IMG/VR virus record: IMGVR_UViG_3300043270_000050
Span: 1 to 64,000 of that record
Strand: one strand, 5' to 3'
DNA length: 64,000 bases
Source: a virus
Shown: one piece after another, positions 7,023 to 10,387 of the stretch
Layout of the letters: every line of letters begins with the position of its first letter
Position numbering within the stretch: position 1 is the first letter of the stretch
Notes under the pieces: model-generated
Told to the model about the DNA's origin: nothing
Databases searched by the model: none
Seen by the model: the letters and a program-made list of their open reading frames with translations, nothing else
Translations under genes and position numbers: made by a program

Positions 7023-7247
7023 ATGAACCAAGCATTCAAACGAATAAGTTTTGAAAACGTTCCGAGGGGGTCGTGGTCGCGGTCGCGGTCGTGGCCGCGG
7101 TCGCGGTCGCGGTCGCGGTCGTGGTCATGGTCGGGGTCGCGGTTGGAGTCGTGGCCGCGGTCGCGGTCGCGGTCGTGGTTGGGGTCGCGATCGCGGTCGT
7201 GGTCGCAGTCGGGGTCGCGGTCGGGGTCGGGGTCGGAGGGTCTATGA
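7023..7247 (+). CDS. Leader-repeat mini-ORF a: MNQAFKRISFENVPRG plus Ser-[Arg/Trp/Gly] repeats (74 aa)
   Basis: GAGGAG 4 nt before the ATG. Its TGA overlaps the next ATG (ATGA). Leader is conserved in 5 other copies with third-position-only differences. Confidence 0.45.
   Translation: MNQAFKRISFENVPRGSWSRSRSWPRSRSRSRSWSWSGSRLESWPRSRSRSWLGSRSRSWSQSGSRSGSGSEGL
7067..7236 (+). repeat. Hexamer array 1, (GGTCGN)n
   Basis: About 28 units of GGTCG[C/G/T] with a few variants (GGCCGC, GGTCAT, GGTTGG, AGTCGT). Confidence 0.9.
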
Positions 7248-7885
7248 ACCAGACAATCAAACGAATAAGTTTTGAAAACGTTCCGAGGGGGTCGCGGTCG
7301 TGGTCATGGTCGGGGTCGGGGTCGGGGTCGTGGCAGTCGCGGTCGTGGTCGGGGTCGCGGTCGGGGTCGGGGTCGCGGTCGGGGTCGGGGTCGCGGTCGG
7401 GGTCGGGGTCGGGGTCGGGGTCGGGGTCGGGGTCGGGGGTCGGGGTCGGGGTCGAGAAGCATTGGAGTGGAGACATGAAAAAAGAAGAGAAGAAAGAGCC
7501 ATTTGATCCGGGCCCGCCGATGGCCGCAAAGCTCGGCGTGTCTGAAGACTGGGTTATCACGGCCTGGAGCGCGGATCTGGACGCGTTCGAGCACTTCATC
7601 GCGCGAAAGCCGAACAAAAAGGCGAAAACCTACGAGCTGTGCGAGCTCACCCTCGCGCCTGTCTCTTTCGAGGGAAAGAAAAAGTCGATTCGCGGGGACA
7701 TCGACAAGCTCGTCGAGGTCGTCGAAGAGGCCCTCGCACCGGAAGACGACGAGGAAGACGAGGAAGACGAGGAAGACGAGGAAGACGAGGAAGAAGAAGA
7801 CGAGGAAGACGAGGAAGACGAGGAAGACGAGGAAGAAGAAGACGAGGAAGACGAGGAAGACGAGGAAGAGGAATCAAACGAATAG
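7244..7885 (+). CDS. Leader-repeat mini-ORF b (MNQTIKRISFENVPRG plus SR/SW/SG repeats), as sequenced fused in frame to the downstream acidic-tail protein
   Basis: GGAGG 4 nt before the ATG. A G5 run at 7435-7439 (G4 elsewhere) shifts SG to VG, so this frame runs through ATG 7475. Confidence 0.35.
   Translation: MNQTIKRISFENVPRGSRSWSWSGSGSGSWQSRSWSGSRSGSGSRSGSGSRSGSGSGSGSGSGSGVGVGVEKHWSGDMKKEEKKEPFDPGPPMAAKLGVSEDWVITAWSADLDAFEHFIARKPNKKAKTYELCELTLAPVSFEGKKKSIRGDIDKLVEVVEEALAPEDDEEDEEDEEDEEDEEEEDEEDEEDEEDEEEEDEEDEEDEEEESNE
7287..7454 (+). repeat. Hexamer array 2, mostly (GGGGTC)n
   Basis: Long run of GGTCGG units. One unit carries an extra G (7435-7439). Confidence 0.9.
7475..7885 (+). CDS. 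hypothetical protein with extreme Glu/Asp C-terminal tail (136 aa)
   Basis: ATG 7475 starts MKKEEKKEPFDPG. The last ~45 residues are E/D only, encoded by a GAAGACGAG 9-mer repeat. The stop lies inside a partial leader copy. Confidence 0.55.
   Translation: MKKEEKKEPFDPGPPMAAKLGVSEDWVITAWSADLDAFEHFIARKPNKKAKTYELCELTLAPVSFEGKKKSIRGDIDKLVEVVEEALAPEDDEEDEEDEEDEEDEEEEDEEDEEDEEDEEEEDEEDEEDEEEESNE
7742..7870 (+). repeat. 9-bp tandem repeat (GAAGACGAG)n encoding the acidic tail
   Basis: Read directly. Interrupted twice by GAAGAAGAA. Confidence 0.85.
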
Positions 7886-7943
7886 GTTTTGAAATCGCTC
7901 CGCCGGGGTCGGGGTCGCGGTCGCGATCGCGGTCGCGGTCGCC
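7871..7943 (+). repeat. Partial leader copy (no ATG) plus short hexamer array 3
   Basis: AATCAAACGAATAGGTTTTGAAATCGCTCCGCCGGGG followed by ~6 GGTCGN units. Confidence 0.8.
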
Positions 7944-8007
7944 CTAGACCGGCGAAAAGGCCGCATGTGGCCCGATGCCATCTCCTATTTCAGAGGACGG
8001 ATCCAGA

Positions 8008-8646
8008 ATGAAACCAGACTTCCCCTACGAAGGCTCATTTTTTGAGTGGCTCGAGAACATCGCTGGCTATCAAAAGTCGTCTGCGCGGTCGACGGTACGC
8101 ATGGTACGGAGAGCTTTCGAGCTGTACGCGGCTCACGAGCTCGAGGAGCTGTTTTCCTCGAAGTACACCCCCTACCTGCGTCGCTGGGTCAGCTTCGCGC
8201 AGACCCGCGGCCTTCGCGACGCATTCACGCAGGCCGTTGAGGAGCACTACTCGCCCGTCGAGCCCTCTCCGACGGGTCCGGTGAACACCAAGGCCCCCTC
8301 CGACAAGGCGTGGCGGACGCTTATCGAACAGCTCGCTTCTGCCGACTCGCCGGTCGACCGCGCGCTCTACGCGCTCGTCCTCGCCCCGCACCCGGAGACC
8401 GACATGGAGGACCTCTTGAAGATGCCCATCCGGGAGCTTCAAAAGCTTCTCCCCTCGGAGGTCGCACCGATCCTCGACAAGGCCCGACGCGCGGGCACTT
8501 TGCGGATGTACCTCTGCCCAGATTGCGCCCCGCAGAGCGTGTATCACCGGGTGTGGGCCCGGTTGAAAGCCCTCACCCAGGGCGGCATGACCTTCTCGGG
8601 GATTGAAAAGCTGCCTGTGGAACGTCGCTGGGCGGTGCTGCGATGA
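8008..8646 (+). CDS. hypothetical protein (212 aa)
   Basis: ATG 8008 after GAGGACGG. Coherent frame. The opposite-strand ORF 8035-8736 looks like a compositional shadow. Confidence 0.55.
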   Translation: MKPDFPYEGSFFEWLENIAGYQKSSARSTVRMVRRAFELYAAHELEELFSSKYTPYLRRWVSFAQTRGLRDAFTQAVEEHYSPVEPSPTGPVNTKAPSDKAWRTLIEQLASADSPVDRALYALVLAPHPETDMEDLLKMPIRELQKLLPSEVAPILDKARRAGTLRMYLCPDCAPQSVYHRVWARLKALTQGGMTFSGIEKLPVERRWAVLR

Positions 8647-8945: not shown

Positions 8946-9781
8946 AGCCTTTTCTCAAGTGGGTGGGCGGCAAAGGGAGGCTCGTCGACACCCTCCGAGA
9001 GCTCATGCCCTACGAGCTCGACCACCTACAGCTTGTCGAGCCTTTCCTCGGGGGAGGCGCTGTGTTCTTCGCCTTGGAGCCTCGCCGGGCCGCTCTGAGC
9101 GACACGAACGCGGCGCTCATCAACACCTACGAAGTCGTCCGGGATCGAGTCGATGAGCTCGTCGGGCAGCTCAAGGGCCTTGAAGCATCGCACAGCCCTG
9201 AGCTCTACGCGCTCACGCGCGAGAACTTCAACCGGTCGCAGCTCATCCGCTCGGCGGAGCAAGCGGTCAAACAGGCCGCGCGGTTTATCTACCTCAACCG
9301 GACGTGCTTCAACGGCGTGTGGCGCGTCAACGGGGACGGCAAGTTCAACGTGCCGATGGGCGACTATAAAAACCCGACGATCTGTGACGAAGAGACGCTG
9401 TATGCAGCCTCGAAGCTCTTGCGCACGCCGATCCTATTCCCCGGGGGCTTCGATAGGGCGCTTCAACGCAAGTGGTACGGACCTTCGGATTTCATCTACC
9501 TTGATCCGCCCTACGAGCCAATCAACGAGACTTCAAACTTCACGAGCTACGCGCAGAGGGGCTTTTCGCAGGAAGATCAGCGGAGACTCCACGACACGAT
9601 GCGCGAGTTGACGCAGACTGGAGCATTCATTATGCAATCGAATAGTGACACCCCGTTCATTCGGGAGCTCTATAAGGACTTTCGTATCGAAGCGATCTCC
9701 GCTCCTCGATCAGTAGGCGGCGCCCGCTCAGCGAGCGAGGTTGTCATCCTGAACTACGATGAAAACGGGCGGGTGAGATGA
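8942..9781 (+). CDS. dam: N6-adenine DNA methyltransferase, Dam (D12) class
   Basis: KWVGGK, FLGGGAVFF (AdoMet site) and LDPPY catalytic motif. GTG start overlaps the upstream TGA. Confidence 0.9.
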   Translation: MKPFLKWVGGKGRLVDTLRELMPYELDHLQLVEPFLGGGAVFFALEPRRAALSDTNAALINTYEVVRDRVDELVGQLKGLEASHSPELYALTRENFNRSQLIRSAEQAVKQAARFIYLNRTCFNGVWRVNGDGKFNVPMGDYKNPTICDEETLYAASKLLRTPILFPGGFDRALQRKWYGPSDFIYLDPPYEPINETSNFTSYAQRGFSQEDQRRLHDTMRELTQTGAFIMQSNSDTPFIRELYKDFRIEAISAPRSVGGARSASEVVILNYDENGRVR

Positions 9782-10038
9782 ACCAAGCCATCAAACGAAT
9801 TGGTTTTGAAAACGATCCAACGGGGTCGCGGTCGCGGTCGCGTTCGTGGGAGTCGTCGCGGTCGTGGTCGCGGTTGCGGTCGCGGTCGTGGTCGGGGTTG
9901 CGGTCGGGGTCGGGGGCGGGATCGGAGTCGCGGTCGCGGTCGCGGTCGCGGTCGAGGTCGTGGTCGCGGTCGTGGTCGTGGTCGCGGTCGTGGTCGCGGT
10001 CGTGGTCGTGGTCGCGGTCGTGGTCGAGAAGCGTATGA
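9778..10038 (+). CDS. Leader-repeat mini-ORF c: MNQAIKRIGFENDPTG plus SR/SW repeats (86 aa)
   Basis: Its ATG overlaps the dam TGA (ATGA). Its own TGA overlaps the next leader ATG. Confidence 0.45.
   Translation: MNQAIKRIGFENDPTGSRSRSRSWESSRSWSRLRSRSWSGLRSGSGAGSESRSRSRSRSRSWSRSWSWSRSWSRSWSWSRSWSRSV
9822..10026 (+). repeat. Hexamer array 4, (GGTCGN)n
   Basis: About 34 units. The 3' half is a regular GGTCGC/GGTCGT alternation. Confidence 0.9.
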
Positions 10039-10145
10039 ACCAAGCCATCAAACGAATCGGTTTTGAAAACGCGCGGTCGCGGTCGTGGTCGTGGTCGTGG
10101 TCGGGGTCGCGGTCGCGGTCGGGGTCGGGGTCGAAAAGTCTATGA
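10035..10145 (+). CDS. Leader-repeat mini-ORF d: MNQAIKRIGFENARS plus short repeat (36 aa)
   Basis: ATGA overlaps at both ends. Confidence 0.4.
   Translation: MNQAIKRIGFENARSRSWSWSWSGSRSRSGSGSKSL
10073..10133 (+). repeat. Hexamer array 5
   Basis: About 10 GGTCGN units. Confidence 0.9.
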
Positions 10146-10387
10146 ATCAGGCAGTCAAACGGATTGGCCGGGAAAACGCAAGGTCAGGAGCGGGTGCGCG
10201 CACCCCTGCGTTTCAGAAAATCGAGTCACCGTTTTCATGCTCCGGTGTCGGCACGCCTTCAGACCTAACAAGGTGGTCGTGGGCGGGGTCTAGGTTGTGG
10301 CAGAGAACGCGATCGTGGTCGGGGTCGCGGTCGTGGTCGCAGAGGGGTTCATGGCTATGGTCGGAGTCGAGGTCGAGGGGTCTATGA
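10142..10387 (+). CDS. Leader-repeat mini-ORF e, degenerate: MNQAVKRIGRENARS plus unique insert plus decayed repeats (81 aa)
   Basis: ATGA overlaps at both ends. A ~100-bp unique insert with the GGGTGCGCGCACCC palindrome interrupts the array. Confidence 0.35.
   Translation: MNQAVKRIGRENARSGAGARTPAFQKIESPFSCSGVGTPSDLTRWSWAGSRLWQRTRSWSGSRSWSQRGSWLWSESRSRGL
10273..10378 (+). repeat. Hexamer array 6 (degenerate)
   Basis: Recognisable GGTCGN units mixed with diverged hexamers. Confidence 0.7.

Follow-up and report, generated by a model that had tools for sequence, protein, structure and literature searches.

Between positions 7023 and 10387 of a 64,000-nucleotide stretch of viral DNA (positions 1 to 64,000 of the IMG/VR record IMGVR_UViG_3300043270_000050; the whole stretch is called the window below), the plus strand carries six units in which a conserved head of about 45 bp is joined to an array of the hexamer (GGTCGN)n. 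Comparison with relatives makes it very likely that these units are real phage mini-genes, translated in a frame in which Ser alternates with Arg, Trp or Gly, and that the encoded peptide is under selection. An earlier note on this DNA had described six head copies, each followed by a GGTCGN array, and six such plus-strand units were indeed found. The head core ATCAAACGAATNGGTTTTGAAAAC has five matches at up to three mismatches, with none expected from 100 shuffles. A sixth, more diverged head copy begins at 10142; here the array does not follow the head as it generally does in the other copies, but is a degenerate one at 10317-10340, after about 130 nt of non-repeat sequence. (GGTCGN)n runs are confined to 7069-10340 of the window and to the plus strand, and the variable base of the hexamer is C (38), G (30), T (23) or A (7).

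Four of the units are intact mini-genes, one is frameshifted and one is a remnant without an ATG. Mini-gene 1 (7023-7247, 74 amino acids (aa)) joins the head MNQAFKRISFEN to a Ser-X tail, and its TGA overlaps the ATG of mini-gene 2 (7244-7478), which has the head MNQTIKRISFEN and a tail that is frameshifted by an additional G in the run 7435-7439. The open reading frame (ORF) continues from there into the gene at 7475-7885; in the phase of the array end, the stop would be the TGA at 7476-7478, on the ATG at 7475. Further downstream, the gene for a Dam-type N6-adenine methyltransferase (8942-9781; PF02086, E = 3e-60) ends in a TGA that overlaps the ATG of mini-gene 3 (9778-10038), which encodes 86 aa with the head MNQAIKRIGFEN and a tail of about 34 units. 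Mini-gene 4 (10035-10145) encodes 36 aa and mini-gene 5 (10142-10387) 81 aa. In mini-gene 5 a non-repeat insert separates the diverged head, MNQAVKRIGREN, from a degenerate tail, and the final TGA overlaps with the ATG of an ordinary gene (10384-10701; 105 aa, phrog_37280, function unassigned), the start of which is coupled to the chain in this way.

The overlaps of stop and start have the form ATGA and link 7023 to 7247, and 9778 through 10038 and 10145 to 10387, finishing on the ATG at 10384. A chain from the dam stop codon to this ATG, as proposed in the earlier note, is therefore present, and the more general proposal that every copy ends in such an overlap stands for the two stretches just named but not for the copy at 7244, which has no ATGA end in the window. 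Nor does every copy possess its own ATG: the remnant at 7873-7947 (IKRIGFEI..., followed by a short array and the stop TAG at 7945-7947) begins without one; it overlaps the 3' end of the gene at 7475-7885, relative to which it is in the -1 frame.

Upstream of mini-gene 1, at 6710-6967 on the plus strand, lies a gene for an acidic protein of 85 aa, a predicted small beta-barrel with a weakly Sm-like fold and a family-typical C-terminus, ...CPWKHELPRKTK*. This gene, here called the partner gene, is missing from the earlier note and is the key to the family.

The repeat in other viral contigs

All six frames are open through the arrays; openness of a frame is therefore no proof of coding, and the evidence must come from relatives. 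A scan of IMG/VR for six GGTCGN units returned at least 119 loci. Among the matches listed, most of the oriented arrays are preceded by an ATG that opens a peptide of the form M-N-(A/Q)-A-(I/L/V)-x-R-x-G-(F/Y/W)-(D/E) in the TCG-NGG frame, and the arrays mostly end in GGTAA, GGTGA, GGTAG or TATGA, that is, in a stop in this same frame. A stop no more than 6 nt past the array end was found in the Ser-X frame in 55% of the 113 arrays listed, and in the other two plus frames in 3.5% and 1.8%. Tandem or dispersed extra copies occur in other phages as well (e.g. contigs L010, L013, L021, L063, L080, L092, L093 and L108). A PT-linker fits some unrelated (GGTCGG)n matches among these loci; it does not fit the mini-gene family.

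An exact DNA search for the head in viral contigs gave one chance match only, in a giant-virus metagenome-assembled genome (MAG); the head is conserved as protein and not as DNA. A phmmer-type search with the 86-aa mini-protein brought up 8,000 candidates, none of them significant; sequence search is thus unsuited to this family, and relatives were collected by synteny with the partner gene. In contig L136 (4249-4400) a typical head, MSAAVLRAGYDR, is followed by a non-repeat tail, so that the head can evidently join a different C-terminal part.

Many viral contigs end in or just past an array (L127, L128, L138, L149, L157, L161, L165, L168, L170, L174, L183, L188, L192, L195 and L199), from which it appears that assembly breaks down at the repeats. 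Where the mini-genes should be called, gene callers report spurious ORFs on the minus strand of the arrays (L203, 7082-7522 and 9790-10089).

Evidence that the mini-genes are coding

Eighty viral loci were obtained through the partner protein alone, independently of the repeat. By a strict criterion, 58 of the 80 have a Ser-[R/W/G] mini-ORF directly downstream of the partner, with ATG as the start in 51 of these 58; in several of the other 22 loci the array is imperfect or cut by the contig end. The Ser codon differs among the 58 loci (TCG in 34, AGC in 13, AGT in 6, TCT in 4 and TCA in 1), and the codon for X is nearly always NGG (TGG 434, GGG 389, AGG 269, CGG 239), the hexamer reading GGTCGN, GGAGCN, GGAGTN, GGTCTN or GGTCAN depending on the phage. 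Because the Ser codon switches while the Ser-X alternation persists, it is the dipeptide that is conserved, not the DNA. For Arg, each locus uses almost only AGG or almost only CGG, the minor type accounting for 8 of 508 Arg codons within loci, and codon choice tracks genome GC content over a range of 29-69%.

The heads, too, vary in codons. Codon entropy over 29 heads is 1.00, 0.80 and 1.69 bits at positions 1, 2 and 3, and Arg is encoded by both the CGN and the AGR families and Gly by all four of its codons. Over 10142-10387 the window differs from contig L204, which belongs to a sister strain, at 11 positions, and 11 of 11 are synonymous in the head frame, compared with 0-1 in the other plus frames; one antisense register reaches 10 of 11 as well, but its reading frame is interrupted within the region.

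The earlier note had argued from differences between leader copies for selection on the translated peptide. The switches of Ser codon, the third-position entropy of the heads and the 11 synonymous differences now strengthen this argument considerably, and the alternation of Ser with Arg, Trp or Gly that it had read from the window holds in the partner-fetched relatives with their varied Ser codons. The frame is respected in homologues, ATG and Shine-Dalgarno sequence (SD) are present, and the context is a coding one, all of which favours coding. Other readings of the arrays were tried and rejected: a Gly-Arg frame (GGT-CGN, with N silent) is absent from the AGC-, AGT-, TCT- and TCA-type arrays and its stops are not adjacent to arrays, and the minus-strand readings (Asp-Arg, Thr-Ala, Arg-Pro) have no conserved start or stop, the head being on the plus strand.

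The encoded microprotein consists of a head of about 12 residues, M-N-x-A-(I/L/V)-x-R-x-G-(F/Y/W)-(D/E), and a tail of 15-50 Ser-X dipeptides; the whole product has a median length of 71 aa and a range of 35-152. X is Arg (0.36), Trp (0.31) or Gly (0.28); all three are found in every locus, in near random order, and Trp makes up about 30-40% of X even in genomes with 67-68% GC, in which T is scarce. The charge is about +11, the isoelectric point (pI) about 12, and Trp contributes about 12.5% of the residues. No signal peptide or hydrophobic segment was found in the mini-gene sequences examined. The tail is predicted to be disordered: the AlphaFold2 model of the mini-protein has a predicted local distance difference test score (pLDDT) of 50 and no secondary structure, a low confidence that is consistent with disorder and not proof of it. 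The comparisons support a tail in which units are gained and lost while selection maintains a balance of Ser, Arg, Trp and Gly.

The partner gene and the two-gene cassette

Among the matches listed, many array loci have an upstream gene that ends in ...W.H.LP..QK*, its stop often overlapping the ATG of the mini-ORF, and the window ORF at 6710-6967 is a member of this family. None of the 108 close homologues of the partner has a Pfam domain or an informative name, and the partner itself has no match in Pfam (E <= 0.01) or PHROG. The family is nevertheless large: a profile search gathered 2,027 clusters at 50% identity (E <= 1e-3), 1,508 of them at E <= 1e-10, and at least 259 viral contigs encode a partner relative. 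Of 50,697 GenBank phage records, a single one contains the partner, that of an uncultured phage from Manatee Spring, in which the mini-ORF is annotated as a hypothetical protein, MNAAIIRAGLDASWSWSWSWSRSRSWSWSGSRSGSRSRSGSGS. Tandem two-domain proteins of 211-258 aa also occur in the partner family (P0109, P0110, P0111 and P0115), and among the best partner-family matches none joins the barrel and a Ser-X tail in one natural protein.

AlphaFold2 models the partner as a six-stranded small beta-barrel with one helix (pLDDT 97). The top Foldseek matches in the PDB are all Sm/LSm proteins but weak ones (E 2e-3 or weaker, TM 0.53-0.63), and the helix lies mid-chain and not N-terminally as in the Sm fold. 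Viral proteins that match this fold are uncharacterised, DUF6948 or 'Sm-like' proteins. No Sm1/Sm2 motif or Pfam LSM/Hfq match was found in the partner (Pfam at E <= 0.01; PHROG). The core is mildly acidic, with a mean net charge of -2.5 and a pI of 5.7, and this average acidity does not favour an RNA-binding ring.

The association of the two genes holds in both directions. In genome assemblies, nearly all of them MAGs and from many phyla, 29 of 35 partner loci carry the mini-ORF; conversely, among the matches listed, 63 of 89 array loci have the partner at most 700 nt upstream on the same strand. The start of the mini-gene overlaps the partner stop in 36 of 58 loci, while at its 3' end an overlap with the start codon of the following gene is seen in 29 of 50, and with such overlaps at both ends the genes are probably translated as a coupled chain. 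Head and partner also vary together. Where the partner ends in AIESFG.LK*, the head of the mini-gene is basic, of the M.RSSKQKYR kind, in nine of nine cases and in none of the R.G[FY][DE] type; partners with the W.H.LP..QK tail go with heads like MN.A..R.G(F/Y)(D/E) or with other non-KQKY heads, and none of them with the basic KQKY head. Such covariation between the head and the C-terminus of the partner fits a physical or functional interaction between them. Taken together, the comparative data support the view that the mini-gene and the gene for the small acidic beta-barrel are a conserved and widespread two-gene cassette of uncultured phages.

The location of the cassette is an early region or one of nucleic-acid metabolism, and not a lysis or structural module. 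Its neighbours include an AAA ATPase, DUF932 and Dam in the window, the repressor region just upstream in the Manatee Spring record (MW202573), and RNA ligase, PNKP and a weak Acb2/Tad1-like match in contig L210; in other cases it is found near DNA polymerase A, a PDDEXK nuclease and a primase, and elsewhere near an HNH gene and a cytosine methylase. Downstream genes vary from locus to locus, and no enzyme recurs beside the cassette in the neighbourhoods examined. In an Acidimicrobiia MAG (L202, 8260-8620 of a 469-kb contig) the cassette is situated at the edge of a prophage-like block with a portal gene and an intein-containing gene, beside host ABC-transporter genes; here the partner gene is followed by two GTG-started heads (VTAAVLSAA... 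and VTAAMLGAA...) with arrays.

Comparison with a sister strain

A sister strain is represented by contigs L204 and L205, in which Dam is 95% and the partner gene 98% identical to the window. The mini-genes differ much more in length. Mini-gene 1 encodes 74 aa in the window and 34 aa in the sister strain, a difference of 120 nt, and downstream of dam the window has two mini-genes (3 and 4) where L204 has a single one of 40 aa. These comparisons support rapid change of tail length through gain and loss of repeat units. Mini-gene 2 has an intact version of 57 aa in L204 and L205, which in L204 ends in ...SIGVET* with its TGA on the ATG of the next gene. The window has five G at 7435-7439 where the repeat predicts four, which fuses mini-gene 2 to the gene for the acidic protein; the same run is present in contig L203, the mini-ORFs of which are identical to those of the window. 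The extra G may reflect either a true frameshift or a misassembly of the repeat.

The head remnant at 7873 is retained in L204, where its end forms the ATGA of an extra gene. Compared with the window at 7942-7960, L204 has about 590 bp more (6190-6780), which contain two additional small genes. On its left side this indel has its edge at the short array at 7907-7942, which suggests that arrays may act as recombination breakpoints.

Other features of the locus

The partner gene and mini-gene 1 are separated by a 55-nt spacer, which contains a perfect 14-bp hairpin (6978-7009, plus strand; RNA fold of -32.6 kcal/mol, z = -6.25); the outer stem of the hairpin pairs with the SD GAGGAG of mini-gene 1. 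The hairpin is shared with the sister strain contig L204; most relatives have no spacer, and the two genes overlap. The gene at 7475-7885 (plus strand) encodes a protein of 136 aa with a poly-Glu/Asp tail of about 50 residues, which derives from a 9/42-bp tandem repeat at 7748-7869, (GAAGACGAG)n, with a perfect 42-bp period and a different length in L204. Translated in the -1 frame, this repeat gives (RRG)n, in the same phase as the head remnant without ATG and its array at 7873-7947. That an acidic tail is encoded beside genes for polycations may perhaps be no coincidence.

All genes in this part of the window are on the plus strand (the AAA ATPase, small unknowns and the Dam methylase, then phage replication genes), and the skew of G over C at 7001-8000 is strong (0.296). 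Apart from Dam and the AAA ATPase, Pfam and PHROG comparisons of the partner and the neighbouring genes yielded no informative match. No Rfam covariance model matched 6000-11000 at E <= 1, a promoter and terminator scan gave no excess over shuffles, and blastn of the region against GenBank phages returned only low-complexity or array matches. Elsewhere in the window there are a 22-bp tandem repeat, TCCCGCCGGCCCGGGGCTGGGC, at 1-85 near the left end of the source contig (3.9 copies, 98% match), a perfect 41-bp direct repeat in two copies at 1328-1410, and a 45-bp repeat at 49947-50078 (2.9 copies, 73% match).

Proposed function and alternative explanations

The explanation that we consider best overall, and to which we give about an even chance of being right, is a coding cassette with a head that docks on the partner and a tail that binds polyanions multivalently. 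The head would be a docking motif for the partner protein, and the tail a multivalent chain with Arg and Trp as 'stickers' and Ser and Gly as spacers, which would bind polyanions by composition and not by exact sequence. Because of the genomic context, nucleic acid is the most plausible polyanion, and phage or host RNA or DNA would be the likeliest target; the tail would coat, chaperone or condense it in early infection, and the extra copies in this phage would raise dosage and diversity. A broader reading, which we regard as possible and clearly more speculative, is that an acidic Sm-like barrel docks a highly variable polycationic repeat via a co-evolving head, and that early in infection the complex serves as a multivalent 'sticker' scaffold, either to condense or shield nucleic acid or to plug a protein of the host defence. 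Such a system, large and not recognised before, would extend across many bacterial phyla as a phage counterpart of the eukaryotic RS/RGG or GW-hook domains.

Several points weigh against the docking and polyanion-binding explanation. The partner is acidic and weakly Sm-like in its model, with a differently placed helix and no LSM match in Pfam, and an RNA-binding ring is so far hypothetical. The mini-gene is absent from about 20-30% of partner loci, so that some lineages can dispense with the tail. The covariation of head and partner could result from shared ancestry alone. Within one genome the arrays are uniform in nucleotides (one Ser codon, one Arg codon, NGG only), which shows concerted evolution by slippage, so that the units of one array are not independent evidence. 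Single copies decay: one is frameshifted at 7435-7439, and the one at 7873 has no ATG. Finally, the docking and nucleic-acid steps are ones that we infer.

Among the rival explanations, our order of preference is a membrane peptide, a defence decoy, a translation device, a modified peptide and, last, a DNA or RNA repeat. Arg/Trp-rich peptides are classic membrane binders, and the high Arg/Trp content, the net charge of about +11 and the translationally coupled acidic partner would suit an intracellular, membrane-active cationic peptide that serves in host shut-off, superinfection exclusion or as a lysis aid, with the partner as its neutralising chaperone or antidote. We consider this unlikely, because the chains contain neither a signal peptide nor a hydrophobic segment, are long, with a median of 71 aa, half of it Ser, and are encoded in an early or DNA-metabolism context and not in lysis cassettes; several copies per genome would, moreover, be risky for a toxin. 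Alternatively, the mini-protein could be an anti-defence decoy or 'hook' array, the Trp residues of which plug pockets of host defence proteins in the way that the GW/WG 'Ago-hooks' of eukaryotic viruses engage Argonaute, or a polycation that blocks a nucleic-acid sensor. S-W-S or G-S-W-S in a disordered chain, fast length turnover and multiple paralogues do resemble GW/WG platforms, and there are neighbours of a counter-defence type, namely Dam in the window and RNA ligase, PNKP and the weak Acb2/Tad1-like match in L210. Yet 36% Arg is not a feature of Ago-hooks, we know of no Trp-binding pockets in prokaryotic Argonautes, and no link to a defence system turned up, although no search aimed at one was made; a decoy is thus rather improbable.

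The unbroken ATGA chain in the window, the stop/start overlaps at both ends in many loci and the hairpin over the SD of mini-gene 1 would be expected of a translation-level device, in which the mini-ORF is a coupling spacer or leader peptide and the runs of Ser, Arg, Trp and Gly codons tune or sense the tRNA supply for the downstream gene. A spacer has no need of a head that is conserved as amino acids across 29-69% GC, nor does it explain the R/W/G balance in every locus; downstream genes differ, and the codons follow genome usage and are not rare by design, all of which makes such a device quite improbable. The analogy of the earlier note to precursors of ribosomally synthesised and post-translationally modified peptides (RiPPs), in which the head would be the leader for a maturation enzyme and the Ser-X core would be modified (e.g. 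by Trp cross-links or Ser dehydration), captures the layout of leader and hypervariable core in tandem paralogues. It finds no counterpart in the neighbourhood: no modifying enzyme, protease, transporter or PqqD-like RiPP recognition element (RRE) recurs beside the cassette in the contexts inspected, and the only conserved neighbour is the 85-aa beta-barrel, which has no enzyme or RRE signature. The window does contain a gene for a radical SAM domain protein (31743-32894, minus strand; phrog_1802, E = 5e-23), but it is 22 kb off on the other strand and there is no evidence of a link to the arrays; cores of 30-100 residues with R/W/G in random order are also unlike known RiPP cores, and we regard a RiPP as highly doubtful. 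Least probable by far is a repeat that acts as DNA or RNA (G-quadruplex-prone GGGGTC runs, iterons or recombination hot spots) with incidental ORFs. The skew of 0.296 at 7001-8000, the nucleotide uniformity within arrays and the indel breakpoint at an array speak for it. Against it, the dipeptide is conserved among relatives and the hexamer is not, a stop follows the array in one frame only, the sister-strain differences at 10142-10387 are all synonymous and there is no Rfam match. The codon switch in relatives essentially excludes a purely DNA- or RNA-level repeat.

Comparison with known systems

We rate the cassette with its docking head and polycationic tail as lying outside the known kinds; the analogies with RS/RGG, GW-hook and Sm proteins are resemblances, not memberships. 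No Pfam, PHROG or Rfam family covers either cassette gene, and a search of the searchable literature, including sequence strings, repeat names and DUF6948, found no description of the cassette or the repeat, in agreement with the earlier note, which knew of no described phage element of this kind.

The RS domains of SR and SR-related proteins and the RGG/RG regions are likewise disordered Ser/Arg or Gly/Arg repeats that are composition-dependent, multivalent and tolerant of length changes (PMC9479744); a survey of SR-related proteins across life makes no mention of phages (PMC9479744). In contrast to these, the phage repeat has a strict Ser-X register in which Trp and Gly share X with Arg, and its product is a free-standing microprotein without an RNA recognition motif or helicase domain. 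The GW/WG 'Ago-hook' platforms (GW182/TNRC6, NRPE1, SPT5L), which viral suppressors such as SPMMV P1 mimic to counter the defence of the host (PMC2904775, PMC4476159), share with the tail many Trp residues flanked by small residues in a fast-evolving, repeat-built disordered region. They are eukaryotic, however, and have neither an Arg-rich register nor a conserved head or partner gene.

The Sm/LSm proteins SmD1, SmD3 and LSm4 carry Arg/Gly-rich tails and thus combine, as the cassette does, a small bent beta-barrel with a basic low-complexity tail. LSm domains can also dock short helical peptide motifs (PDB 6am0, 6f9w). In the phages, barrel and tail are encoded by separate genes, and the barrel is acidic, with weak fold similarity (E of about 2e-3) and without Sm motifs. 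RiPP precursor families have a conserved leader, a variable core and tandem paralogues in common with the mini-genes, which in turn are not linked to a maturation enzyme or RRE and have long cores of random-order dipeptide repeats.

Arg/Trp antimicrobial peptides such as (RW)n, indolicidin and tritrpticin are short and secreted. They resemble the tail in their strong positive charge and in Arg and Trp as the active residues, whereas the phage peptides are intracellular and longer, have Ser in a 1:1 ratio and are paired with an acidic partner. The poly-GR and poly-PR proteins of C9orf72 are dipeptide-repeat proteins that arise from hexanucleotide expansions. Here, too, a hexanucleotide repeat of unstable length gives rise to an Arg-containing dipeptide repeat; the phage repeat, by contrast, has a defined start, a head and a defined stop, and it appears to be the product of a selected gene and not an aberrant one.

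Significance

The biological importance of the cassette is potential rather than shown. In practical terms, the arrays break metagenome assemblies and seem to mark recombination breakpoints. The cassette appears to be common among uncultured phages and to have largely escaped reference collections and gene callers. With five Ser and two Arg codons in use across 29-69% GC, it represents a very clear natural case of selection on dipeptide-repeat composition, and it offers a test system for low-complexity Arg/Trp 'sticker' sequences in bacteria and their viruses.

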